Virus record (IMG/VR): IMGVR_UViG_3300031993_000004
Coordinates: 128,001 to 192,000 of that record
Strand: one strand, 5' to 3'
DNA length: 64,000 nucleotides
Origin: a virus
Taxonomy: Duplodnaviria; Caudoviricetes
Shown: positions 5,609-61,762 of the stretch, one piece after another
Layout of the letters: each line of letters begins with the position of its first letter
How positions within the stretch are numbered: position 1 is the first letter of the stretch
Translations under genes and position numbers: made by a program
The notes under the pieces: generated by a model
The model's input: only the letters and a program-made list of their open reading frames with translations
Database searches by the model: none
Told to the model about the DNA's origin: nothing

Positions 5609-6565
5609 ATGGCGATTATATTTCAAGAAGCGGCAATGAACTTGCCGCGTCTTTCACAATCATCGCTTTATGCAAAGTTTGATCAGCAATCGCACATCAC
5701 ACAGATCTGGCGTGAAGCGATCAGTGATAAGAGCATGTACGTATCTCCTGATGCAATGAAGGAAATCATGTCTTTGATTCGTTTGAATGGTTCGCCGAAT
5801 GCAAAGAAAGCCGTTGACATGTTCACTTCAGGCAGAATGATCCTCATTTACAATAAGGACCGTTCAAAGATTCCGGCAGTTCTTCCATACATTATCACAC
5901 AAGGCAAGGACGGAAGAGCAACAGCATTTGTATTCGCCGACAGAGTTGTTACGAATCTGACATCTACTGCAGAATATCCTAATCTGATGGCTACCATGGA
6001 AGCTGCATTCCTTGCAGCTGCATTGGTTGAGAATCCTTCACAGTTCCTGTTGAACCGTCAGCTGATTCTGAATCTCTGCAGTTTATATCAGTATCTGTGG
6101 TTGATGCCGCTGGAGCAAAAATTGTACATCAAGGGTGAGAATCTTACAAAGGTTCAGATGTACGTAACCGCATATTTCTACAGAATGATTGACGGCGATA
6201 AGATGGGTCCGACAACGATCCCATTCAATCGACTGTTGAAGGATAAGGTCAGCGGTGAACAGGTAAAACAGGTTACCACCGAAGTTTCTATGATGCCGTC
6301 ATTGGGAATCGGTAATGTGATCTCTTTGATTAAGCAGATTAATCCTGTCAGATACAAAGATCTCGACAGCACATTCATGACATACTTCGCTTCTTCATGT
6401 GGTGTCACATTGATCTTTGCACTGGAGAATATTCAGTATCTGTTCCTGTTGATGACATCTGCAAATTACAAGACAAAAGTCACTGCGTACGCACTGAATA
6501 AGAGTGCAACAGACAGTGTTAAGAGGTGCATGTCCACATTGAATGGTATGAACATTCATATCTGA
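5609..6565 (+). CDS. Hypothetical protein (318 aa)
   Basis: RBS AAAGGA. First gene of the operon that contains the portal. Confidence 0.85.
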   Translation: MAIIFQEAAMNLPRLSQSSLYAKFDQQSHITQIWREAISDKSMYVSPDAMKEIMSLIRLNGSPNAKKAVDMFTSGRMILIYNKDRSKIPAVLPYIITQGKDGRATAFVFADRVVTNLTSTAEYPNLMATMEAAFLAAALVENPSQFLLNRQLILNLCSLYQYLWLMPLEQKLYIKGENLTKVQMYVTAYFYRMIDGDKMGPTTIPFNRLLKDKVSGEQVKQVTTEVSMMPSLGIGNVISLIKQINPVRYKDLDSTFMTYFASSCGVTLIFALENIQYLFLLMTSANYKTKVTAYALNKSATDSVKRCMSTLNGMNIHI

Positions 6566-6579
6566 AAGGATGATGAATA

Positions 6580-8451
6580 ATGGCGCTTTTCCCAACATAC
6601 CCAGATCTGATCAGTGCGGTGGATGTTGCACGTACATCGTATCGGATTGGGTATAATATTGGTGGCGCGATAGGAACACTCGTTTCAAATATTCGTGATC
6701 TGAAATCAACTGATCTTTCTGAAGTTGTTCGGTATGGGACAAACGCAAACAAATCACACTACGGTGTTGATGAACCGACACAAGCGTATTATTTGCAAGG
6801 GCCATATCGACCAAGAGATGATTTTCCGATTGGTGGTCCCTTATATACAAGCATTGATCAGACGAATATTTATCCGTGGATGCATAGCATGGGATCTGGG
6901 CAGACAGATGAGTTTTCCGCAAAATATAACGGAGGAATGTTGTTTGCCGTTGACCGTGAAATGCATGTCACGTCGAATTCATCGCTCGATCCAATATACA
7001 CACCCGAAATATTAAAACAGATATCTGCTGGAAATAGCAGTATCATTTATCCGATCGAAAACAAAGTGCCCGGTGTTGATTCTCCTTTTGCAAAGTGGAA
7101 TCTACCATTCCGTCAATCAAATGTCTTCCAATATCAAGGATCGGTAACTCCTGTGAATCCAGAAGGAGATCCTGAAAAGAATTACGTTCTGACAAATGGT
7201 TTGGAGAACTCTGATAAACGGAATGCTTCATTTACTGCAAGCTCAAGCGACGAAGCGAATGCTTCTCCGGGTACGCCAACTTCACCGATTCATCCGTTTA
7301 CAAGATCATATTCGGAACGTTCACGAAATGCTCTTGTTACAGCATACAATAGAACGAAGCTGCCAATTGCTGATGCGGAACATCGTAAGGGATTCCGCTA
7401 TATCTTCATCACGCGTCCGGAATGTTATCTGTTGGCTTCCGATGGAGTCGGCGGTACAAGGATGTCTGTTCAATGTCAACAAGATGAAGATATGAACACT
7501 TGCGGATGCCGTATGCCGCACATCCTTCGAGCGCTGTCTCCAGTTTATGTGTGTCCCGCACCAGGCAATCCACACTATGCAAACTGGAACTATCTTTTGT
7601 GCAACCGTATCATGAGTATGGGGACACAAGGTCAGTCGCTTTCAATTCTCGACTCGGTTACGAAAGGCATCCATGGCGCAACAGTTACCCCTGGAAAGAT
7701 CATGACATCGAATCTGGGCGGTACATTAGATATTTCATTCCGTGATACAAAATGGATGGACGTCTATGAGATGTTGCGAATCCATATGTTGTACATCCAT
7801 AAACGTAAAATCGGAAAATTCTCTCCTCCGTTCAATGGATACACGTATGCGAATGAAGGATTCGCAACAGGATTCGTTCGTCAATTTATGCATCCATATG
7901 ACAGAGCACTTGAATACTGCGTTTCTATTTGGGACATCATAACCAACGAAACCGGTACAAAGATTTTGTATTGGTGTAAGTATTATGGTGCATATCCAAC
8001 GGCATGTTCAACATCTGTTCTGTCTAATGATAATGCATCAGCAATCACAGGAGAAGCTCGGGTTTCTTCTACATGGCAATATCAATATAAGCAAGAAAAC
8101 GTTTATCAGAACCTGATTGAATTCAATTACAATGCAGGTATTTTTGATAACATGGGAGTTCTTCGCAGTGATGTTGATCTTCGTAATGCTGTGCCATTCT
8201 TGTATCGTGAAGAAGGAAACGGCGGTTCCAGTGATACATCAAGTATATTGAAAAATTACGTCGGTGCAGCTTCAATGTTCACCGGATCACCATTTATCAT
8301 ATCCGAAGTTAATGGTGCTCACGATCCCTGGAAATGGGATCAAACGGGTTTGGTTCAAAACAACCTGTGCTTTATGCCTGTTCATAATGTTGACAGTGCG
8401 ATTGCAACCAGAATGAATCTTGGTATCACAAACGAGATGCCAGTAAAGTGA
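6580..8451 (+). CDS. Virion structural protein, possible tail-tube-like baseplate/tube initiator (gp48/gp54-like)
   Basis: 623 aa. The C-half has YIFITRP, LDISFRDT...VYEMLRIH and ILYWCKYYGAYP, patterns reminiscent of tube-fold proteins. The ORF is certain; function is inferred. Confidence 0.5.
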   Translation: MALFPTYPDLISAVDVARTSYRIGYNIGGAIGTLVSNIRDLKSTDLSEVVRYGTNANKSHYGVDEPTQAYYLQGPYRPRDDFPIGGPLYTSIDQTNIYPWMHSMGSGQTDEFSAKYNGGMLFAVDREMHVTSNSSLDPIYTPEILKQISAGNSSIIYPIENKVPGVDSPFAKWNLPFRQSNVFQYQGSVTPVNPEGDPEKNYVLTNGLENSDKRNASFTASSSDEANASPGTPTSPIHPFTRSYSERSRNALVTAYNRTKLPIADAEHRKGFRYIFITRPECYLLASDGVGGTRMSVQCQQDEDMNTCGCRMPHILRALSPVYVCPAPGNPHYANWNYLLCNRIMSMGTQGQSLSILDSVTKGIHGATVTPGKIMTSNLGGTLDISFRDTKWMDVYEMLRIHMLYIHKRKIGKFSPPFNGYTYANEGFATGFVRQFMHPYDRALEYCVSIWDIITNETGTKILYWCKYYGAYPTACSTSVLSNDNASAITGEARVSSTWQYQYKQENVYQNLIEFNYNAGIFDNMGVLRSDVDLRNAVPFLYREEGNGGSSDTSSILKNYVGAASMFTGSPFIISEVNGAHDPWKWDQTGLVQNNLCFMPVHNVDSAIATRMNLGITNEMPVK

Positions 8452-47825: not shown

Positions 47826-50800
47826 ATGAATGAAATTACACAACGCACCGGCTCGATCTTTGATGAGCATCCGCAGTTGCGAACATTCCGTGAAAATTTC
47901 ATGAAACACCATCCGGATGTAAACTTTGATGCGAAGAATTTGTATGTGATTCAATCATTCAACCAAGATGGTGAACTGACTGATGAACATTACGGATTGA
48001 ATCTGATCACCGATGGTGGTCTTACTGCGATGAATGCAAACACCAACAACACCAACGGAAAACTTGCACTTTTGGAAGGTGTTGAAGAAGCTTCGTCTGT
48101 GTTGGAATATGCTTTTCCAACATATACTGCAATAATCAATAACACGTCAACTGACACCGCTAATTCTGTGTATCCTATGGCGTATGATTCGACAACAGGG
48201 ATTGTAACGCAACATGCATCCAAAACAAAATGGATATATGATTACAATATCGATGGTATCACAAGAGACATCGAAGTGAATTGTATCATATATTATTACA
48301 CTGGCACAGGTGCCGGCGGCTTCAACAATACCCCGGTCGCAAAGGTCACAACGTATGATGTGAACGGTCTGCCAGCATCATTCACCAAACATCTGAATGA
48401 AAAGATGGTCATCACGCTTTATATTGTGAATTCTTTTCATGAGGATTTGATTGATGATGCTTATGACCAAGGTATCTACATTACAATGAATCCTGGTAGA
48501 ATCGCGGGAATAGGCTCTGGATCAAATATATGGGCTAAACAGTGGATGTGTTGGAGTTCCCTTTACACCGCTTATGATGCGACGGACAACAGTGCATATA
48601 CCAAAACATATACGTCATTGAGTAATTTGTCATATTATTCGGAATCAAAGTATATGCAACAGAACGGCGAGATGACTGATTCCAATTACTCAGGTTGGAC
48701 ACTCATGACAGATCCGAGATGTTTCTACAGTAGATCAATGCTCAGGTTTGGAAACTGGTATTCATCCGGATTCAGTGATGGAGGTGTAATACATATCACT
48801 GAAGAGATGAAACTTGCCACCCCGGAAGAGATCGTGTGCGATACTGTATATACGAATAACTCAGAAACAGGATCACTGTCAAACACATTCGGTTTATGTG
48901 CGTTCGCTGTCGAGTATTGCCAAGGAATGATCCCTGTCGCAGATTTTTCAATATCAGCAGTAAAGGGCTACAATTATACGACACATGCTTGGGATATCGA
49001 TATCTCGTTCATTGATGAGCCTGATGCTTATTATGACAATCCATTTTGTCAGTCTAGACTGAATGTCGGTATAAGTGGAGCGACTCCACAGTGGGACAAT
49101 TATGTGTACACAAACCCGCGTGCAAAAACAATCACTGGACGACCACCTGCCGTACCTGTAACTGCTCTTGCGCCCACTGCTTCAAAAGTGTATACAATGT
49201 ATGCCACTGATAAATGGTGGGATGTAAGTTCATGGGAGCTGATTGCAAACAGAAATGCCATTCCGCAATCGCTCCAGAATAAGAAGTATTTCATCTCATC
49301 TGGTGGTGACAATGATACCCTGATACCAACATATGATCAGGCGGTTCATCGTTTGAACGTCGGTACGGAACATACCGTGCTGAATACACCGGCGGCACCA
49401 TATTGGGTACAAGGATTCAGACCCATTATCAACAAAGATGATGGATGGATTCTTGTTCAGGATCATATCCTGTTCATGAACGGTAACGATGTTGCTGCAT
49501 CGTATCGTCTTCATGGTCCTGAGATGGTTCCATGGATGTATTATAGTACAAGATGGGAATACGCATATCAGAATCTGTATGTGTATGATGGTACGGATTA
49601 TGTGTTGAACACAAGTCCAACGTATAACTCCAGAACGACGTATTATATTGATGGACTCGACGAGTATACGATTCGGTATAATGTCGGAAATAAACTGCTC
49701 GTTGGCTCTCATGTTGGAACATACAACACCGGGTATCCAACGAAGCTTCGCTTGTATACAATCATTGATGCGTCTACTCCACCAACATACATTGACATCA
49801 CGGTTGATACAAACACGACTAACCGCCAGTATTTCTCTATGTATTCTGGTTCTCAGAGTGGATACTATGTCATTCAGGATCAGCAGACACATTGTGCGAA
49901 TATCATATCTCTTGCAGATGGTTCTGTTGTGAAGCTTGAGAATGTCATGTACTGCTTCGCCGTCGAGTATTCGAATTATTGTGTGTACATGGATTACAAT
50001 TCAAGCCCAATCATGTTCCATGTATACGACATGACGACGAATACAATCAGGAGTGACATCATATTGCCGTCGGAATATGCAAACATTGTGTACATGTGTG
50101 GCTGGCGTGATTACGTGTACATCAAATCGACATCCGGTACGTCGTCTTATGTTAACATCATTAATGTTGAAGATGGTTCTATCAACCTGAGTAGCGTTGT
50201 AATTCCAAACGTGTTCCCATCATTGACATATAACTCCGGTAGTGCAGTTGCCAACGCATGGAGACTCAACATGCTTGTCGGTCAGATGTATACAGAAGAA
50301 TGCATGATCATTTCACAACCGTGGCAAGGATCGAATTCTCCAATTGTAATCAAATATTCTGACCCTGAAACTACATTTGATTTGTTCAAAAACGGTTATC
50401 TGAATGAACGACCGATTGATGCATATTTCGAACGTAATAACTACAATGGAAAATCGGGTAGCCTTGTGTCATATATCGTACATGATGAGCAATCCATTTC
50501 CCAATCAAAGTTGTTGCTGGTGAATGCTTTGGGTACACAGGTTGGATACCAATCTGCAACGTCCAAGGAGTACTGGATATACGATTCGTCTGAATTCTAT
50601 CCGTCCGTGTTGGATATTGGTCTTGCAATCGATTCTGGTTCTCCAACGAATCTGTGCCGTTTTCACGGCATGAAAACCACGGATGCAACTTATTCTCACG
50701 GCGCACTTGTGTACTGGAACAACGGCATCATCCGAATTGATAAGAATGGCGATGGGGTGTGGCGTCCGTTGCAATGGTTCATTGCTTCACAGGTAACTGG

Positions 50801-51368
50801 CACAACGAATACAATCCAGGCATACAATAACCCAAAGAAGATCGGACATAAATCAATCAATATCTTCAAAACCAATCGTGGTATCATTCAGCACACGCAA
50901 GCACCACGGTCAACTGGAGATATTCAGATGGTGTTCAAACACGATGATTGTTTCTATAACAATTATGGTCCATTGCCATCAGGTGCAAATTTTTACAAAG
51001 TGCTCAAGGGTGAAGTGATTGGACCATATGGTGAGATCATCTCTGTTCCAAACGGAACGACTATCCGTGTTGAGGTTGTACCTGCTGATGGGTTTGAGTT
51101 CTTGGTTGGTGCATTCAAATGGTATCTCCAAGATTTCACCCTTTCATACAACACCGATGGTGACATCAGCAATTCTAGCATTGCTTGGACTTCGAGCACT
51201 GCAACAGCTGACGACAAAGATCAGCAAAATGGTACCGCAATCACACTGACGCGTGATATTGCTGTGCTTGGTATCGGTATCGGTATAACCGTAAACACGC
51301 CACAAGTGCTGACTGCAACGATGATCAAGAGCATCAAAATCACAACGGATCCACATTTGTCGACATAA
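47826..51368 (+). CDS. Tail fibre/receptor-binding-like protein, paralogue B (1180 aa)
   Basis: Collinear similarity to the 44656 protein: NLYVIQ..YGLNLITDGG, YATDKWW, QNKKYF and GWRDYVYI. Confidence 0.65.
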   Translation: MNEITQRTGSIFDEHPQLRTFRENFMKHHPDVNFDAKNLYVIQSFNQDGELTDEHYGLNLITDGGLTAMNANTNNTNGKLALLEGVEEASSVLEYAFPTYTAIINNTSTDTANSVYPMAYDSTTGIVTQHASKTKWIYDYNIDGITRDIEVNCIIYYYTGTGAGGFNNTPVAKVTTYDVNGLPASFTKHLNEKMVITLYIVNSFHEDLIDDAYDQGIYITMNPGRIAGIGSGSNIWAKQWMCWSSLYTAYDATDNSAYTKTYTSLSNLSYYSESKYMQQNGEMTDSNYSGWTLMTDPRCFYSRSMLRFGNWYSSGFSDGGVIHITEEMKLATPEEIVCDTVYTNNSETGSLSNTFGLCAFAVEYCQGMIPVADFSISAVKGYNYTTHAWDIDISFIDEPDAYYDNPFCQSRLNVGISGATPQWDNYVYTNPRAKTITGRPPAVPVTALAPTASKVYTMYATDKWWDVSSWELIANRNAIPQSLQNKKYFISSGGDNDTLIPTYDQAVHRLNVGTEHTVLNTPAAPYWVQGFRPIINKDDGWILVQDHILFMNGNDVAASYRLHGPEMVPWMYYSTRWEYAYQNLYVYDGTDYVLNTSPTYNSRTTYYIDGLDEYTIRYNVGNKLLVGSHVGTYNTGYPTKLRLYTIIDASTPPTYIDITVDTNTTNRQYFSMYSGSQSGYYVIQDQQTHCANIISLADGSVVKLENVMYCFAVEYSNYCVYMDYNSSPIMFHVYDMTTNTIRSDIILPSEYANIVYMCGWRDYVYIKSTSGTSSYVNIINVEDGSINLSSVVIPNVFPSLTYNSGSAVANAWRLNMLVGQMYTEECMIISQPWQGSNSPIVIKYSDPETTFDLFKNGYLNERPIDAYFERNNYNGKSGSLVSYIVHDEQSISQSKLLLVNALGTQVGYQSATSKEYWIYDSSEFYPSVLDIGLAIDSGSPTNLCRFHGMKTTDATYSHGALVYWNNGIIRIDKNGDGVWRPLQWFIASQVTGTTNTIQAYNNPKKIGHKSINIFKTNRGIIQHTQAPRSTGDIQMVFKHDDCFYNNYGPLPSGANFYKVLKGEVIGPYGEIISVPNGTTIRVEVVPADGFEFLVGAFKWYLQDFTLSYNTDGDISNSSIAWTSSTATADDKDQQNGTAITLTRDIAVLGIGIGITVNTPQVLTATMIKSIKITTDPHLST

Positions 51369-51385
51369 TTCAGATATCTGACATA

Positions 51386-51400
51386 TATATTATTACTATG
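51386..51400 (+). promoter_or_regulatory. Early-type promoter with no downstream protein gene
   Basis: Perfect TATATTAT-tactat-G. Confidence 0.65.
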
Positions 51401-51628
51401 AACGAGAAGAAACTGACGCGTTCCGGGATCAAAGGTTTGATGTCTAACGTACCTCCCGGGTGTCCAACTATGACGACGCGTAGATTGCATTGTGTTTCTG
51501 ATCGTTCTATTCAAAATGCATGAATGAAATGCGAGTTTGAAATTCACAAATCATCGGACAGATGGTCATGCCGTACGGGCGTGGTGAAAGGATACTCGTA
51601 TTTTCATTCATGTGTTTATTTTTTTTTT
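51400..51628 (+). ncRNA. Candidate structured ncRNA (about 230 nt, two multibranch domains)
   Basis: Domain 1 spans 51400-51507 and domain 2 spans 51518-51613, each with nested stems. Ends in an 11-T run. Confidence 0.65.
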
Positions 51629-51635
51629 GATGAAA

Positions 51636-51661
51636 TGATGTGGGGCGTAAGCCCCACATCA
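51636..51661. terminator. Terminator between convergent units
   Basis: TGATGTGGGGC-gtaa-GCCCCACATCA. Confidence 0.8.
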
Positions 51662-51670
51662 ATCTCATTC

Positions 51671-54600
51671 TTATATGATATTCAATACAATGTTTGAATC
51701 AGAGAGAACGAACATTTCCGGTACATACCGTTCAAGTTCATTCTTCGGCATATCGTCCAATTCATCCCACCGTTGAACAATCGCCTGATAATCGGCATTC
51801 ATATAATGTCCATTCAGAAGTTTCTTCTGGTTGGTGTACCAACCTTTGAACTTCAAGAATGCAACATTTGGATGTTCCTCAAGCTGTTGAATCAGCTGGG
51901 AGATGTAAATGTTGTTGTCCATCGAAATCATATCAACCGGAGTATGCACAGTTGTGATGCGGTTGAAGTATGACTTGATCATCTGACGAACTTCGTTCAG
52001 TGTGTTTGTCGACAATGCAGGGTTGTACAACTTCAAATCGAACTCAATCTGGACATCCAAATCCGGCCAGAATGCAGGCGGATCCAGAGTTTTGTCAACA
52101 TCAGCAACATATGAGTGTGGGAGACCATAAGTTGCAATCAACTTGCAATCCAGATAGTTATTACCTTCCAAGCGTTTGAAGATAACTGGTTCAATTTCTT
52201 TATGCACTGTCGTGAATGCATTCACGAATGACTCGAACATATCAGAATTCATCATCCGAGCTTGCACAAATGGCATGAGCTGCACCTCAATCGCACTGTT
52301 GACAGATGTTTGAGAGAAGATCTCATCGATCTGTGCAGGATAAATCGATGTGTTGTTGTACACACGTTCCCAGTCGACATTTCCAATATACGGAGCTTCT
52401 GCAAGATCTTCCAATGTCAAACGCAATTCTGTCATGAATCCGGTAGACAATTCCGGAACTTCTGGATTTGTTCCGTATGTATGAATGATGTCATCCAACT
52501 GCGACTTCATATCACCCGCAGCGTTCTTGATGTCTTCAAACGAAAGTCCGGAGTCATCAATGGTACCGGTGATGATGTGATATGCATACTGTTTGATTGT
52601 ATACAGGTTCTTCACAGTCGGATCATATTCACCGAGTTCAATCAGTTTGTCGTATGCTTCAATCTGAACTTCTGACGGCTGCTGATATTCACCGAAGTTT
52701 ACAACACTCCGCATTTCCTTCAGCTCTTGTACAAGTGAGAATTGATCAATGTTCCACTTGTCTTGGAGACGATATCCCTTGAACGAATCATCGCCGTCGA
52801 TTGGTGATTCCAACGTCGCATCTTCTGACTTGAACAGAATATTCATTGTCAGTTCAGGTGTTGTAGCATCGACTGTCACGATCTTCGAAGAGTTTGTCGA
52901 AACCCATGAGCCGCCGCCATATTCTGTAGAAGCAATTTTAATTCGGTTATCAACATCAACCATTTTGTTCAACGGATACATCTGCGTATCGAAACGGATA
53001 CTGCCATCAGATTCAATCTGAACTGGCTGCATTTCAACACGTCCGGTTGTAATTCCGTCAACCTTTGCTTCCAACACGACACGCATGTTGTTTTTCACAA
53101 GCTGCAGTTGATCAGATACCATATAGAACAACGGAATGTTTGTGTTGCTCATGACGGCAGACAGTGGCATTTTATAATATGCGACTGCACTTTCTGATGC
53201 GGTCGGTTTCATATCGGCATACAAGATGATGCTCTTGCCATTTACCTCATTCAAATCGAATCGACAGGTACCATTGCCCAAATCAATTGGTGTATACGGC
53301 GTATAAATATTCGCAGCATTGCTGATTTGATATTGAACCGTGATACCATTGCTGTATTTGAGTTGGAAGTAAATTGTCGGTGCATACGACTGTCCGATAC
53401 GGTACAGCTTGGTTTCGCCATATTTTGTCAGACTGGTTTCAAACACATCATTCGAAACTGTCATAGACTCGAGCGTACCATCTTCTTGACCATCTTTCAA
53501 CCGCAATTCATAATAATTCTGCGACGGATATCGCTGGAACGAAATCGGATCCGTATCTTCAATTGCCGGATAGATATGGAGTTCCGTATCACCGGTGACC
53601 TTGACTTCTTCACACGGTCCATTTTCTCCCCACAATTCATTGCTGCCCTTGACGCCAGCAAAGCTATCACTGACTGCGATTGGATATTCTTTTTTCTCCG
53701 GTCCAGAATAATCTTCAATTCTCAAACCAGACAATGCCCACGTACCATCATTGTTACGGGATTTTTCTGTTACGCACAGATATGTCGTGTTCGGATTGAA
53801 TACAGTATATTGCTTCTTCGGATCCTGAACAAGAATCGGAATCATCGCAGCATACATGTCGACCGGTTTCACGAAATAGTTCCACATGATATCCGGGAAT
53901 GACGGTACTGCAGCATTCCGTCTGAAATGCTTTACGAATTCGGAACCGACATACGATGGTGCCTGATTCGGAATAATAACCGATTCAATGTTGTAGTAAT
54001 CCTTTTGATATGTGCGGACAATGTGAACGAACGACGGGGTTCCATGATAAATGATACTCTTATCCTCAGCACTCAGTGATGTATCCTGATATGCAAATGG
54101 GGTATTAACAATCGAAGCTGTTGCTGTCGTATTCACCCATGGGTTGAAGTATCCAATGGCAAATGGTGATTTCTGAATACGAATACCGAATGGATTTGCA
54201 AACAGGAAATCTTCATCAAAGTTTGCCGTGGTAGAAGCTGTTTCCACCTGTTCATTTGTTGTAACGACAAGCGGTTTCACAGTATACCGATTGGATTCTT
54301 TGTTTGCGTAAACCCATGCCCACCCTGGCGGAATAATGATTTCATTTCCATTCGGAGAAATGATTCCATCGTTGCTTCCATACAGAACACGATATGGGAT
54401 TCTTCCATGTAATGTGTTCGTTCTGTAAACATCGCCGTTGGGATCTGTCAATGCAATGAATCCGCTCCAAATTCTGCCCCATGGATCATCTCTCCGTTTG
54501 AAGAAGAACGGATACAGAATCTGTTTGAACAGAAACGTCTTGAACCATTCATAGATGTCATGGTCGGATGAAATAACATTTGCAGTGTTATACGCTTCAA

Positions 54601-55675
54601 TCGTCTCTCTGCGAGTCGTTTCATTCGTTCCAATGTTTGTACCTGAATGGCTTCCGGATGTTACAAACGCGGACTTCGTGACATTTCCGTTGTTGGTGTA
54701 CTTGTTCGTCGATGTGATGATCGATACAGACTCTTCTGTCGTAAAAGATGAGAAGTTCGCAGCCTTTCCATGACATGTGTACACCGTGAACACGAATGAC
54801 GAGTTTAGTTCCGGAACAAAGAAACGGTTTCCGTTCATTTGGAATTTGAAACGAATCGTTTGTGGAGAGTCCATGATGTAGTGCACATACGGAAGCTGAT
54901 CACTAACATCCGAGTGAATTGGCAGAATGTGATCTTTGTCAAGATACTGCTCATTGCCAGATGCATCGACATACTTCACATCAAATCCAGCAATATGATT
55001 CTGACATGTGATGACAAAATCATCATTCGGGATTCCATTCGTCATGTTGTTGACGGACGTGTGTGTCTGCCGCTCGAACTCGGACATCTGAACGAAGATG
55101 TGCAACCAATCCGAAGATGTCCGATACAGAATGTATGGCTTCTTGTTGATTGCGATCGAATTCTGCTCGTCCATATTCGTATACTGAATATTCCACGTCG
55201 GATTCTCAGTATTCGTAAATTGGATCAACACGTCATAATCCAACGAATAAATCGATCCATTCGCGAGATTAATCTTCGTATTTTTATCCAATACGAATTC
55301 CATCAAATTTCTATGCTGCGGATTCTCTTTGGCATTCTTAAACAAATCCGACAGTTTCAATTCGATCATGAAATTGCAAACTGATGGAATTGCGAATGAA
55401 TAGCCGATGTTGAAGATCGCCGCATTCGCATATATGGAATCGGACAGCACTGCTTTTGTGATAAATGACTCATTCAGATAGAATGCCGATGTAAATGCCA
55501 TGTTCTCGAGTGCCTGTGACATGTACTCAGATGCAACCGAGAAGAAACCACTGTTCAAAACGTTCAGCGGAATGTCATGGAATACGCGCGGCATCAGAAC
55601 TTCCTGAATGTATTGCTTTGTCTTCGAATCATCGGAATAATTCTGCAAAACAACATTGGGATCTTGTGTCGCCAT
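51671..55675 (-). CDS. Baseplate wedge protein (T4 gp6-like)
   Basis: N-terminal LNESFITKAVLSDSIYANAA is a gp6/J-like motif. Also YTCHGKAANF and C-terminal IYISQLIQQLE. 1334 aa, RBS AGGAGG. Confidence 0.7.
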   Translation of the reverse strand: MATQDPNVVLQNYSDDSKTKQYIQEVLMPRVFHDIPLNVLNSGFFSVASEYMSQALENMAFTSAFYLNESFITKAVLSDSIYANAAIFNIGYSFAIPSVCNFMIELKLSDLFKNAKENPQHRNLMEFVLDKNTKINLANGSIYSLDYDVLIQFTNTENPTWNIQYTNMDEQNSIAINKKPYILYRTSSDWLHIFVQMSEFERQTHTSVNNMTNGIPNDDFVITCQNHIAGFDVKYVDASGNEQYLDKDHILPIHSDVSDQLPYVHYIMDSPQTIRFKFQMNGNRFFVPELNSSFVFTVYTCHGKAANFSSFTTEESVSIITSTNKYTNNGNVTKSAFVTSGSHSGTNIGTNETTRRETIEAYNTANVISSDHDIYEWFKTFLFKQILYPFFFKRRDDPWGRIWSGFIALTDPNGDVYRTNTLHGRIPYRVLYGSNDGIISPNGNEIIIPPGWAWVYANKESNRYTVKPLVVTTNEQVETASTTANFDEDFLFANPFGIRIQKSPFAIGYFNPWVNTTATASIVNTPFAYQDTSLSAEDKSIIYHGTPSFVHIVRTYQKDYYNIESVIIPNQAPSYVGSEFVKHFRRNAAVPSFPDIMWNYFVKPVDMYAAMIPILVQDPKKQYTVFNPNTTYLCVTEKSRNNDGTWALSGLRIEDYSGPEKKEYPIAVSDSFAGVKGSNELWGENGPCEEVKVTGDTELHIYPAIEDTDPISFQRYPSQNYYELRLKDGQEDGTLESMTVSNDVFETSLTKYGETKLYRIGQSYAPTIYFQLKYSNGITVQYQISNAANIYTPYTPIDLGNGTCRFDLNEVNGKSIILYADMKPTASESAVAYYKMPLSAVMSNTNIPLFYMVSDQLQLVKNNMRVVLEAKVDGITTGRVEMQPVQIESDGSIRFDTQMYPLNKMVDVDNRIKIASTEYGGGSWVSTNSSKIVTVDATTPELTMNILFKSEDATLESPIDGDDSFKGYRLQDKWNIDQFSLVQELKEMRSVVNFGEYQQPSEVQIEAYDKLIELGEYDPTVKNLYTIKQYAYHIITGTIDDSGLSFEDIKNAAGDMKSQLDDIIHTYGTNPEVPELSTGFMTELRLTLEDLAEAPYIGNVDWERVYNNTSIYPAQIDEIFSQTSVNSAIEVQLMPFVQARMMNSDMFESFVNAFTTVHKEIEPVIFKRLEGNNYLDCKLIATYGLPHSYVADVDKTLDPPAFWPDLDVQIEFDLKLYNPALSTNTLNEVRQMIKSYFNRITTVHTPVDMISMDNNIYISQLIQQLEEHPNVAFLKFKGWYTNQKKLLNGHYMNADYQAIVQRWDELDDMPKNELERYVPEMFVLSDSNIVLNII

Positions 55676-58800: not shown

Positions 58801-60210
58801 CTTGTTGGTGGTGATGTGCGAGCAACGCCTGATCTCAGAATTGAAACTGCTGAAAAACGTATCAACAGGAAAGTTCGTTCAATATGGGATGCGTTGTCGA
58901 CGTTTGAATATTCAGACTTCATCGCAGGCAACCCGTATAACTATTTCGATATCACGGTTCCGAACGCTATCACACTTGCATGGCTGATAGAACACAAGAC
59001 GGAACTTGGAAATCAGATAGATACGAAGTCTGCATCACAAGCATATCTTCTGCTCAGGTCATTGAATTCCCATGCGACGCAATTCAGAGATAAGTGCAAT
59101 GATGCCGAGCATACTCTCACATTTAGCGATGAAACATATAACATCGCGCCGGAGTCATTTAAGGTGAGCGAGGTGCGGCTATATATGGCACAATCATTGA
59201 CAAATGTGATTAAACGTGCGACAGACATCATCAATGCAGTTCCACAATATGTCCCCGATGCAAGCAATGCACTTAAGCTCTATCAGTATATCGCAGATCA
59301 TTATTCACTCGGACAAGTATCGGGAGCAGATCAATTAATTTCTCATATCCCAGAAATAACCGTATTCAACAATCACACTGCGGCTGAATCAAACGATTTA
59401 TTGCCACTCGACTGGCTGTTCGGCTTCTTTGCGCGAACAATTCTGAACAGCAGAGGATGGGAGAAAATCATCACAGGTACATTCGATTACGATCCGTTGG
59501 AATATTATCCTGCTGGATGGACACCGTCTGGATTTGGTGATTACTTCTGGAAAGATTCCGAGAATGTGTATCATCAGATTGAGAACGGAACATTCGAGTC
59601 GAGATATGCTGAAGGTGTGTACTACACGCGTGATGCTGGTACCGGAACATTCTCTCTGATTACAACATTCAATCAGAGTGATGTTGTGTCTTCGTACTAT
59701 ATCCAGAATCGATACGTGAAACAAGATGGCACGAACGTTACCCAGCCAGCTGACTGGAGTTATGCATGGGCAAAATACTACTATACCGATGATGCTACTG
59801 ACCCGAAGCTGTTTAAGCATGTCACCGGAAGTACTGCTCCAGAATGGGTCGCGAACACATATTACACTGAAAAATCTGATGGTGATGTCGTCGGATATGA
59901 GAAAGTGTATACAACATGTGCGTTCTCGCAAACTGAACGCGGAACACTTCCGCCAGAAGGTTCTGCAGATCCAGGCAACTTCATTCCATGCGCACCGATC
60001 TGGTCTGAACTCACTGTGTACGACAGTGATTCGTCTGAAACGCCACAAGAGTCCCAACCTGCAGACTGGTATACAAACTATGCCAACTACTTCACTCGTA
60101 CTGGAGAAGTCGGCAGCTACGTGTATACTAATGTCGAGGCCGCGAAGTATTACTTCAAGACTTGCCGTGGCACATACTATTCAAGAACACTTACACCGTC
60201 TAATACATGA
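55813..60210 (+). CDS. Large tail fibre protein with PADW-type modules (1465 aa)
   Basis: Fibre repeat VNSVNGRTGVVVLNSDDVGLGNVDN near the N-terminus and multiple (E/Q)PADW..Y..YY and APEW..NTYY modules. RBS AAAGGAG. Confidence 0.7.
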   Translation: MSMDNVQLKQEDAFGDHVVLSDINPVSNTKSIDNDDTGEKLNETLSRLWEAINNKLSRYVNSVNGRTGVVVLNSDDVGLGNVDNVSFAVIKSWVINEIENAFKNKQLHMYDTYTDAFNAAATNDRTLAWAPFYCDMYGESDRRSVIGVFTWNDSSSTLDLTYRMINTIGYADESILYRTSSSDYPTENDGLNRDIPVGGIGVNIYQEERPEDQVLFLERGGSKAVSGLRIDNEKIGSRVYYEDTPYGEFNPETGLPSVEPGGYMLWRYKQGTGQGADYKGYKVRIFIDGHEITPKFTTVSSTNPEPEEYTREFYIDNRWVNYASMRNNDIVVMRFSNFIRDNDTTSAGVCLDLSRCQPAVGRIVKSSNPEFDYDIYFQTLNPNTNGYGLMTMETHQNRDVKSTQLGVNMLTSRATPDGRIGHGAYRYANGYSINMSGIMTYAGEESVKNTLEHRNPNILRGIHTPWSAGISSGISVYNLPEDPSNKGSMHISTDGTLCTYPYYQALATRLRAGVAPEWISGKFYQKNGDSYEVLTSEPAGWNYLFFMYYVKDENDAYVSVSGIKQAYSAINFRTYEGDPTKQLCVGSLMASNAVFDNQGYSLSNDYNSIYYPKDSTVENPAGLDQSDFIGGTQASIGINLYKVSSSLYDHDPNATVDSVDMFEHIKEKFGYQFFNLSGMRMNFADWPYDDGNLPIIDSGTTHQFDPKMLYMMGLHDYKDAYGNDRKSYIVPGSFSDGISINVGRFLEITPKKTYRAEKYWEGGKVQVRVGPGMTEEVVQYDVTDVVKNGKSAMTADMPFTYDELVERWFTTGEEFVLWINEYTQHLGTVIHNQLDSTGEEPEDWEDEWYRYEYNVGTEEDPEYVFLPNIPGQDIGFNVMSPTYMGPYYEPNRTGVLGGCMTFAELRNNIFNSSRFSSAKLIWNRPTNRLTPKLDPETLAINQSGQITVIGGANDALTTNIRIIDPDGFYADTYHDDDRDDTQPPHTEHILLGDGLALVGGDVRATPDLRIETAEKRINRKVRSIWDALSTFEYSDFIAGNPYNYFDITVPNAITLAWLIEHKTELGNQIDTKSASQAYLLLRSLNSHATQFRDKCNDAEHTLTFSDETYNIAPESFKVSEVRLYMAQSLTNVIKRATDIINAVPQYVPDASNALKLYQYIADHYSLGQVSGADQLISHIPEITVFNNHTAAESNDLLPLDWLFGFFARTILNSRGWEKIITGTFDYDPLEYYPAGWTPSGFGDYFWKDSENVYHQIENGTFESRYAEGVYYTRDAGTGTFSLITTFNQSDVVSSYYIQNRYVKQDGTNVTQPADWSYAWAKYYYTDDATDPKLFKHVTGSTAPEWVANTYYTEKSDGDVVGYEKVYTTCAFSQTERGTLPPEGSADPGNFIPCAPIWSELTVYDSDSSETPQESQPADWYTNYANYFTRTGEVGSYVYTNVEAAKYYFKTCRGTYYSRTLTPSNT

Positions 60211-60224
60211 ATCGAGGTGGTCTT

Positions 60225-60731
60225 ATGATTACGCTCGGAATTACGCTCGGTTATGATCTGCAAATCAAAGATCACATGATTTGTGTCAAACGTTCTGAGG
60301 AGAATGCAGAAAACAATGCTTTCGAACTTCATGAGAATGGTATTTTCATGGATGACAGAATCGTTTCCAACGGAACTGGGTTTGCAGATCAAGCCGCGGA
60401 TATCATACGGATCGGATATTACGGTCCGTATGATACTCCTAATTCCGGATATACTGCAGCTGCAACGGGACGAGTCTCGGCAAACTGCATTGTCCATCGC
60501 ATTTTCACTGCGAAAGATTCGACCGGTATTGTCCTCGAGAATTTCCGTCCCGTAGACAGTATCATCCCTGGGGATATGTTGCGTATCCCCAAGGGTGACG
60601 GTCGATACGAATATCGACTCATCATCAGCACAACATCGACGGATGACCGAGGTATTCGAAACCCGCAACAAACATACGGAATGAACAATTCCATTGCAGA
60701 AAATGGAACAGTTGTTCTCGGAACTTGGTAA
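60225..60731 (+). CDS. Small fibre-associated protein (168 aa)
   Basis: RBS GAGGTG. Contains a fibre-like NNAFELHENGIFM repeat and IIPGDMLRI. Confidence 0.7.
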   Translation: MITLGITLGYDLQIKDHMICVKRSEENAENNAFELHENGIFMDDRIVSNGTGFADQAADIIRIGYYGPYDTPNSGYTAAATGRVSANCIVHRIFTAKDSTGIVLENFRPVDSIIPGDMLRIPKGDGRYEYRLIISTTSTDDRGIRNPQQTYGMNNSIAENGTVVLGTW

Positions 60732-60742
60732 GGAGGATTAAA

Positions 60743-61060
60743 ATGATTATCGTTCGATTTAATTTCTCCGAACAATGTTATGATTACGGGATCAATTCTG
60801 TTCGGATTTCACCAGATGAACACAACAACTTCTATCTGGATCCAGTTTCGAATTCGATCAAACTCCATACGATACCAGTCGCTGTGAATAATGAAAACAC
60901 ACCAGGCAACGGTATTGATGGTCAGGTTGATCAACCGATTCCGATCATCCGGATGAACAACTCCGTGAGTAGAAAAGTTGCTGGTGATCCCACAGCATCC
61001 AATGAAGGTGTTATTCTCCCAGATCTGCTGAATGCATACTTCGATAGTCTGGGGGTGTAA
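60743..61060 (+). CDS. Small hypothetical protein (105 aa)
   Basis: RBS AAGGAGG. Contains a fibre-like VRISPDEHNNFYL motif. Confidence 0.72.
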   Translation: MIIVRFNFSEQCYDYGINSVRISPDEHNNFYLDPVSNSIKLHTIPVAVNNENTPGNGIDGQVDQPIPIIRMNNSVSRKVAGDPTASNEGVILPDLLNAYFDSLGV

Positions 61061-61063
61061 TGA

Positions 61064-61762
61064 ATGGATGTCATATTTAAGAAACCAGAAGGTGGATTTG
61101 AATTCAATGAAGACAATGCGTTGACATTAAAATTCGATCCATCCGTGAGAGTACAGAAGCTCGAATCTGGTATCTATATTCCGAAAGACGGCTTTGGCCA
61201 AGGGCTCGATGGAACGGTCGACAACTGGACAATTGTTCCGCTCATCAATAAAGAAAACAATTCGTATCAAACAAATACGAATGGTCGAAATTTGATTGGC
61301 GTTAATCTGGATCATGTTGTGTGTATCTATTCAATGTCCAGAAAGAAAGTCACCCAGCGGACAATAAACGGTTATCGATGCAGCAATGAAACGAAGACCG
61401 TGCAAGATGTCATGGATGAATTCAATTGTGCAATGGATATCGGAGTTCCACCCGGCCTCCCGTTTACATCGTACAAAATGACACCCGGTGATTTGTTCCA
61501 ATTCAGAGAGGAAGAAAAACCGTGGTTTGCAAAGAACGATGTGAACGGAAATACATGGCCGTGTATGATGGATGACATGAACCGCTATGAAACTCAGGTC
61601 ACGTTGGCGTTGTTTTATGTCACAGAAGTCGAATACAATCTTCCATCCAACAGCTTCTACATGACAAAGTTGTCATTGAAATGCGTTTGGAAAGAAACAA
61701 ACGATAGTAAGTTCGCAGCGTATGATATCGGACAAACGTATACTGCGATTAAATCTATATGA
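61064..61762 (+). CDS. Hypothetical fibre-associated protein (232 aa)
   Basis: Within the operon. LESGIYI and MTPGDLFQF resemble the 60225 protein. Confidence 0.72.
   Translation: MDVIFKKPEGGFEFNEDNALTLKFDPSVRVQKLESGIYIPKDGFGQGLDGTVDNWTIVPLINKENNSYQTNTNGRNLIGVNLDHVVCIYSMSRKKVTQRTINGYRCSNETKTVQDVMDEFNCAMDIGVPPGLPFTSYKMTPGDLFQFREEEKPWFAKNDVNGNTWPCMMDDMNRYETQVTLALFYVTEVEYNLPSNSFYMTKLSLKCVWKETNDSKFAAYDIGQTYTAIKSI

Follow-up and report, generated by a model that had tools for sequence, protein, structure and literature searches.

Two convergent open reading frames (ORFs) in the structural-gene region of an uncultured metagenomic jumbo phage are separated by a gap of 302 nt, and this locus raises the question of what the gap encodes and what its product might do. 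The DNA analysed here, called the window, was a 64,000-nt stretch (bases 128001-192000) of a 277,583-bp IMG/VR virus record (277.6 kb; G000 below) that was complete by CheckV estimate, and positions are those of the window unless a genome or locus is named. An initial annotation of this stretch had placed in the gap a stand-alone, ORF-free structured RNA gene with an early-type promoter and its own terminator. Covariation in ten homologues supported this proposal, and we have little doubt that 51381-51628 on the + strand, from promoter to U tract, is a real, non-coding, stand-alone gene for a structured RNA, with a predicted transcript of ~229 nt from G51400.

Genomic setting of the RNA gene

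The phage carries genes for the split beta subunits of multisubunit RNA polymerases (phrog_3295 and phrog_3015), and large terminase and tail sheath genes were found in the same genome. Its nearest isolates were the Bacillus jumbo phages AR9, PBS1, and Goe21, with an RNA polymerase (RNAP) beta identity of only ~30%. The metagenome that supplied one of its relatives, 3300033463, is among the rumen datasets (PMC12149495). The ORF upstream of the gap (47826-51368, + strand) is a late gene that encodes 1180 aa and was placed in no family. The convergent gene on the other side (51671-55675, - strand) encodes a protein of 1334 aa belonging to phrog_18960, which has no assigned function, and the RNA gene was always found downstream of the 3′ end of this gene. 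Beyond the RNA gene, the next ORF on the + strand is more than 4 kb away, the adjacent gene being convergent. A 10-bp GC-rich hairpin with a GTAA loop (51637-51660), which also directly follows the 1334-aa gene in the relatives without the RNA, lies outside the RNA and is the predicted terminator of the 1334-aa gene (stop codon at 51671-73).

The RNA fold and its coding status

The + strand from G51400 to the T run folded at -81.1 kcal/mol with a z score of -5.3, which none of the 200 shuffled sequences equalled, so the fold of the initial annotation withstood comparison with shuffled controls. The z score of the reverse complement, the - strand, was -2.7, and the difference between the two strands showed that G-U pairs favour the + strand. 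Covariation in the ten homologues, given below for each domain, indicates that selection acts on the RNA fold.

The RNA resembled no known family. The search of Rfam 15 with the window and seven homologue loci gave no match at the gathering thresholds, and nothing relevant appeared at a relaxed cut-off with E values up to 10 for the element and up to 5 for six homologue loci. ARAGORN found no tRNA or tmRNA gene in the whole window, in agreement with the initial annotation, which had seen no tRNA, tmRNA, SRP, or RNase P signature. 6S RNA was considered and rejected, as there was no model match and the fold consists of a three-way junction and a branched terminator, not of a long helix with a central bubble.

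The locus might instead encode a small protein, from either a 41-aa ORF on the + strand (51398-51523) or a 53-aa ORF on the - strand (51507-51668). Both ORFs exist, and one public MAG annotation has an 80-aa gene here on the strand opposite to the RNA. However, no ORF was common to the whole homologue family, no RBS was found, and the stems changed in a compensatory manner. The 41-aa ORF starts two bases before the predicted +1, so that its ATG ends at +1, and its frame stops after 11 codons in the homologue L003. The - strand ORF shared within the closest clade lacked an RBS, and its substitutions at codon positions 1/2/3 (4/10/4, 8/5/4, and 10/8/8) revealed no third-position bias. The probability of a protein-coding locus was considered negligible, and this reading was rejected. 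In the public assembly (NCBI GCA_018396375.1), the 80-aa ORF is located on a 15-kb contig with P0008, in a gap of ~290 nt after the 1334-aa homologue and on the same strand as that gene; judged from the gene table, it was probably called in error across the RNA gene.

Domain 1 and its nearly invariant unpaired bases

Alignment and MFE folds defined a first domain of 108 nt (51400-51507, + strand) with five helices around a three-way junction. The domain is closed by P1, which is composed of P1a (GAACGA/TCGTTC, 51400-05/51502-07) and P1b (AGAAAC/GTTTCT, 51408-13/51494-99). Inside it are P2 (ACGCGT/ACGCGT, 51416-21/51476-81; consensus YGYGY/RCRCR), P3 (CCGGG/CCCGG, 51423-27/51455-59), P4 (AGGT/ACCT, 51433-36/51451-54), which closes the GUCUAA loop, and P5 (51462-64/51472-74), which is variable and was absent in L050. 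The promoter motif, the conserved G51400, and the paired strands of P1a, P1b, P2, and P3 were all present where the initial annotation had located them. The ATCAA/TTGAT hairpin that it had also described does exist in this sequence but was not kept in the homologues, in which P4 was conserved instead.

In the alignment of nine sequences, 96.7% of the cells in the helices of domain 1 were standard pairs and 22 of the 27 pairs had changed on both sides, although this alignment was fitted to a covariance model, the last of three built successively, and leans towards the structure. None of 500 shuffles was as good, and sliding the 3′ partners by 1-3 columns lowered the paired fraction to 35-55%. 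When the homologues were folded singly, P1-P4 and usually P5 were recovered in most of them, with z scores from -1.6 to -4.4.

The conserved unpaired bases were concentrated in three strings. The P4 loop GUCUAA (51442-51447) was nearly invariant and was found in 8 of the 10 homologues, with AUCUAA in L003 and GUCUGA in L047. The junction strand GUGUCC (51460-51465), which leads from P3 to P5, kept GUGU in 8 of 10, the exceptions being AUGU in L047 and GUGA in L050. The string AGAUUGC (51482-51488), the 3′ strand of an asymmetric internal loop between P2 and P1, was kept in 9 of 10 and read AGAUUGU in L047. The remainder of the consensus comprised a long P1 whose sequence is free, a purine-rich strand on the 5′ side facing AGAUUGC, a P2-P3 joint of one or two U, the P4 loop in the form GUCUAA(UC), and the junction strand in the form GUGUCY. 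There were ~20 nearly invariant unpaired bases in domain 1, and these strings probably form a compact tertiary core. A contact between (G/A)UCU of the P4 loop and AGAU of the internal loop could be part of it: the geometry is plausible, and the sole change, from G to A in L003, keeps the pairing, the bases being otherwise invariant and outside the reach of covariation.

Conserved unpaired strings of 6-8 nt could also be the seeds of a base-pairing sRNA, which would act on host or phage mRNAs through the single-stranded strings GUCUAAUC, GUGUCY, and AGAUUGC. The unit does have the layout of a bacterial sRNA, with its own promoter, a structured body, an A/U-rich linker, a terminator, and a long U tail. 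However, the strings are located in a junction and an internal loop and not in an open 5′ region, and their complements were absent or not enriched in the translation-initiation regions of the phage (0 observed versus 2.1 expected, 1 versus 0.8, and 4 versus 5.1). A base-pairing sRNA was judged to have a low probability.

Domain 2 and the terminator

The second domain (51514-51617, + strand), taken from the MFE fold, is built on a long A/U-rich terminator stem of ~23 bp (51514-36/51594-617) that encloses an inner TTCAC/GTGAA stem and two hairpins. Hairpin A (51550-66) has the loop GGACA (51556-60), and hairpin B (51567-83), which follows at once, has the loop GUACG (51573-77). Read directly from the sequence, the U tract (51615-51628) consists of TTTA and 10 T (51619-28), one T fewer than the run of 11 previously counted; the second domain itself, with its long stem, inner stem, and two hairpins, was as the initial annotation had described it, apart from the measured extent of the long stem. 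The stable hairpin directly before the U tract has the features of an intrinsic terminator, and the same layout was found in all homologues, each with 6-11 T after the domain-2 stem. A simple terminator scanner misses it because of the branched “loop”. In an unfitted MAFFT alignment of five homologues, scored over four helices, 88.5% of the cells of domain 2 were paired and 12 pairs had changed on both sides, compared with 30-46% paired in slid controls. The covariation in related phages on which the earlier proposal depended was thus found in both domains.

The loop GGACA of hairpin A had been proposed to pair with TGTCC (51461-65) of domain 1 in an inter-domain pseudoknot. This complementarity is perfect only in the present genome and is broken without compensation in L010, L003, and L002, which left the pseudoknot unsupported. 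The hairpins themselves were conserved in another manner. An apical hairpin of the form (C/U)AUC-GNACR-GAU(G/A) was found in 7 of the 10 homologues and was doubled in about half, and related GGACA and GUACA loops sat on different stems in L050 and L029. The AUC-GNACR-GAU stems covaried in some homologues (CAUU/AAUG, GUC/GAC, UGC/GCA, and GCU/GGC) while the loop stayed G-N-A-C-R. The hairpin was missing from the slot in the relatives without the RNA.

A three-way junction with invariant bases followed by a terminator and a U tract is the architecture of a transcriptional riboswitch, and an aptamer-like, ligand-binding RNA was considered for this reason. Domain 1 would provide the pocket, for example in a sponge for a signalling nucleotide, or domain 2 of a riboswitch would gate antisense read-through into the 1334-aa late gene. 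Early expression would suit an anti-defence sponge. As a riboswitch, however, the RNA lacks a regulated ORF downstream on the same strand and is followed at once by a second hairpin; when the homologues were inspected by eye, the 3′ half of domain 1 showed no conserved anti-terminator pairing with the 5′ half of domain 2, and no known riboswitch model scored even at E = 10. We regard a ligand-binding RNA as quite unlikely.

A promoter of the early type

The gene starts with ACATATATATTAT and a 6-nt spacer, TACTAT (51381-51399, + strand), in which TATATTAT occupies 51386-93; the G at 51400 is the predicted +1. The early consensus of AR9, AAATATATATTAT-(6N)-G+1, was mapped experimentally, and the virion RNA polymerase uses it independently of new protein synthesis (Lavysh et al. 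2017, PMC5312081). The sequence ACATATATATTAT-TACTAT-G51400 agreed with this consensus at 12 of 13 positions and with identical spacing, the consensus being that of AR9, whose RNAP beta is ~30% identical. The match to a virion-RNAP consensus suggests that the RNA is expressed right after injection. The motif TATATTAT-N6-G was observed six times in the window against 0.38 expected, and the longer motif (T)ATATATATTATT-N5-G-AA had ~19 sites genome-wide, most of them intergenic. In all ten homologues the motif, the 6-nt spacing, and the G as the first paired base of P1 were kept. The gene upstream is divergent in two of them, L002 and L051, which rules out read-through there, so that the RNA requires its own promoter in both. 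It is likely that the early promoter drives the RNA gene with +1 at G51400.

Seven early-promoter sites were inspected, and at each a Shine-Dalgarno sequence and an ORF followed within ~10-130 nt after the G. The leaders at four of these sites (G000 positions 75260; 163721, window 35721; 268423; and 128661, window 661 on the - strand) opened with a hairpin on or close to the predicted +1 G, and their 5′ UTRs of ~40-130 nt led to a strong Shine-Dalgarno sequence. Since several other early leaders open with a hairpin near +1, the stem-initial G is not special to the RNA gene and seems to be a recurring habit of the early transcripts of this phage, and the hairpin at +1 of early transcripts is probably a stabiliser of the 5′ end. 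The RNA gene was distinguished among the early units by the lack of an RBS or ORF downstream and by a terminator after ~229 nt.

A perfect TATATTAT-N6-G was also present inside the 1180-aa ORF (48289-48303, + strand), without the upstream ATAT extension; it probably arose by chance or serves as an internal promoter. Elsewhere in the genome, an early promoter with its leader, ~40 nt long (GATTTCTGTATATATATTATTATTATGAAGGAAGATAA...), was nearly identical at G000 positions 116, 55901 (- strand), 85711, and 277452. At least four such copies were present, including ones near both record ends, and either a terminal repeat or a promoter-leader cassette that is repeated could account for them.

The conservation of the promoter bears on whether the element acts mainly in cis or as an architectural feature, either as a bidirectional terminator or insulator or as a 3′ UTR with a stabilising role in the upstream late operon, with the promoter match being incidental. 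The element is placed exactly between convergent genes, and its flanks, an A-rich stretch upstream of domain 2 and the U tract downstream, allow termination both ways. Only 12 nt lie between the upstream stop codon and the promoter motif in this genome, and because the stop of the late gene comes directly before the RNA here, transcripts of the late gene may also include the sequence as a 3′ UTR. However, the short GC hairpin suffices by itself in the relatives without the RNA, and the ~20 nearly invariant unpaired bases of domain 1 would be needless in a terminator. The promoter motif and its exact spacing from P1 were, moreover, kept throughout the homologues, including the two with a divergent upstream gene. 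A mainly cis-acting role was therefore given a slim probability.

Distribution and inheritance

Searches of GenBank phages with blastn and tblastn gave no match for the RNA element or for the 1334-aa neighbour. A homologue search anchored on the neighbour protein in IMG/VR, the JGI metagenomes, and a large protein collection yielded ~45 loci. Ten distinct versions of the RNA were obtained, namely those of the window, L010, L003 (= L046), L047, L048, L108, L050, L051, L002 (= L054), and L029, and an additional truncated copy was present in L023. All versions occupied the same slot downstream of the 3′ end of the neighbour, on the opposite strand, and their lengths were 197-276 nt. Covariance-model searches of whole genomes found one copy each in G000, G001, and G002 and none in four metagenomic relatives that are more distant (G003-G006), in which the two weak matches were both in apparent coding sequence. 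The covariance model also found no homologue in AR9, phiR1-37, S6, LPJP1, or JD-Fnp6.

In a neighbour-protein tree (quick IQ-TREE search, midpoint root), 12 RNA-bearing rows fell into one fully supported clade of 15 rows, in which an inner subclade of L055, L005, and L053 lacked the RNA. This pattern implies one gain and one loss or replacement, and as traced on this tree the RNA is vertically inherited in one clade. The RNA was retained while the neighbour protein diverged to ~50% identity, and this retention was counted as a sign of selection.

Other inserts were seen in the same slot. The slot of L055 held a different GC-rich insert of ~390 nt (6517-6909 of the locus, minus strand); the neighbour protein of this relative is 58% identical across the searched C-terminal region. 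This insert folded at -183.9 kcal/mol (z = -6.1), had no Rfam match, and may be a second, unrelated structured RNA at the same site. In L033, ~450 nt downstream of 7308 on the minus strand, a different mini-cassette was found, in which a promoter-like TATATTAT was accompanied by a UCUAA string and by several GNACAA-hexaloop hairpins (ccacGGACAAgtgg, ggggacGGACAAgtcccc, and ttatcGCACAAgataa). These loops resemble those of domain 2, but the RNA model does not match the cassette.

The distribution also bears on a role in assembly or packaging, in which the RNA would be a subunit of a virion-building machine by analogy with the pRNA of phi29. The gene lies inside the structural-gene region, always beside the large conserved 1334-aa gene, the layout has two domains, and the self-complementarity of the GUAC loops could allow contacts between RNAs. 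This self-complementarity was not conserved, however, as GGACA and GAACG are not palindromic, and no Rfam pRNA model matched. The RNA is missing from sister lineages that have the same structural genes, which indicates that it is not essential for assembly. An assembly RNA was considered very improbable.

Proposed function

The conservation is located in the P4 loop, the junction, the internal loop, and a duplicated hairpin whose stems covary while the loop is fixed, and this distribution points to a binding function. The initial annotation had suggested an anti-defence decoy, an RNA that binds the RNAP or the ribosome, or a ribozyme. The twin hairpin loops and the invariant junction bases seem more in keeping with a binding RNA than with a ribozyme or an antisense RNA. 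From this anatomy we tentatively propose a stable, trans-acting, protein-binding RNA, which would be either a decoy or the RNA subunit of an RNP, while recognising that other functions together have the larger share of the probability. The virion-packaged multisubunit RNA polymerase would start at G51400, at an AR9-type early promoter, and transcription would stop at the domain-2 hairpin and U tract, near 51628. The resulting RNA of ~229 nt would be long-lived, with its 5′ G in P1 and its 3′ end in the ~23-bp terminator stem; its stability is suggested by the fact that both ends are helical. The twin hairpins of domain 2 would bind a dimeric or bivalent partner, from phage or host, and the RNA would either sequester this partner or serve as a subunit of the complex. 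The explanation as a whole, comprising the RNA gene, its early transcription, its fold, and the protein-binding mechanism, was held at slightly less than an even chance.

Possible partners and targets were sought in the phage genomes. GNACR hairpins numbered 20 in the genome, compared with 11 +/- 3.5 in shuffles, and nearly all were inside genes; as they were not clearly enriched, there was no visible regulon for the RNA to titrate. In a phyletic profile of five genomes, three with the RNA (G000, G002, and G001) and two without it (G003 and G004), ~15 ORFs co-occurred with the RNA. None of these had a Pfam or PHROG family or belonged to a recognisable RNA-binding family in this profile of five genomes. 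Three consecutive ORFs of 174, 111, and 232 aa on the + strand of the window (60207-61762), without Pfam or PHROG assignment, were present in G000, G002, and G001 and absent in G003 and G004; with so few genomes, a tie between these ORFs and the RNA is only a lead.

A putative Vipr-like gene of 254 aa is located at G000 92269-93033, with homologues in G002 (72%) and G003 (37%) and none in G001 or G004. A link between this gene and the RNA was rejected, as G003 has the gene without the RNA and the RNA has no GGY/NN periodicity.

A bolder reading is that the RNA is an RNA-only factor for counter-defence or take-over in the first minutes of infection, made by the injected polymerase. Such a long-lived decoy would trap a host immune or RNA-processing protein, or else a signalling nucleotide, with its twin hairpins and junction pocket. 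We consider this reading unlikely.

Comparison with known systems

The early units of AR9 share with the present locus the promoter consensus AAATATATATTAT-(6N)-G+1 and the split multisubunit RNAP genes. They differ in that the described AR9 units drive protein genes, and AR9 has no homologue of the RNA. With this locus, the range of the AR9-type early promoter comes to include an uncultured clade of rumen phages, and the RNA is predicted to be among the first molecules made by a giant phage.

The pRNA of phi29, transcribed from an early promoter, functions within a protein machine. Both it (Rfam Phage_pRNA) and the present RNA are two-domain phage RNAs of ~170-230 nt, but the present RNA has no match to the model and no conserved intermolecular loop complementarity, and it is dispensable in sister lineages. 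In boxB, hairpins with GNR(N)A pentaloops are bound by the N proteins of lambdoid phages. The loops GUACA, GGACA, and GCACA of the present RNA fit G-N-R-(N)-A and sit on short stems, as is typical of peptide- or protein-binding hairpins, whereas GUACG and GAACG (5 of ~17 loops) do not fit. There is also no boxA and no downstream operon to antiterminate, and the polymerase here is a phage multisubunit enzyme. The duplicated hairpin resembles a binding site. RNA anti-CRISPRs (Racr) and phage decoy RNAs are stand-alone promoter-to-terminator units whose hairpins mimic host RNA and sequester a protein. The present RNA is like them in the layout of the unit; its stems are short and A/U-rich.

In phiKZ-like jumbo phages, sRNAs have been mapped, for example sRNA005 of 201phi2-1 and the phiKZ sRNA upstream of gp182 (PMC11512511). 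Like the present RNA, these are short, structured, and conserved, have no assigned function, and lie near tail or structural genes (PMC11512511). They are products of premature termination derived from 5′ UTRs and were found by transcriptomics in Pseudomonas phages (PMC11512511), whereas the RNA described here stands alone without a downstream ORF, belongs to a different phage group, and is known from sequence alone.

Structured RNAs that have strong comparative support and still lack a known function are a rare point of departure for new biology, and at ~229 nt this one is small enough to be probed, crystallised, and pulled down easily. It would represent a new mechanism if it proved to be a decoy or a cofactor in the take-over of transcription or translation by the phage, and a new class of structured phage “sponge” RNA if the decoy reading were true. 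At the least, it provides a new family for Rfam and corrects the ORF annotations at this site. The literature search found no description of this RNA family. Small structured phage RNAs with a promoter and terminator of their own are a known kind; the RNA family itself, without an Rfam match, is new.
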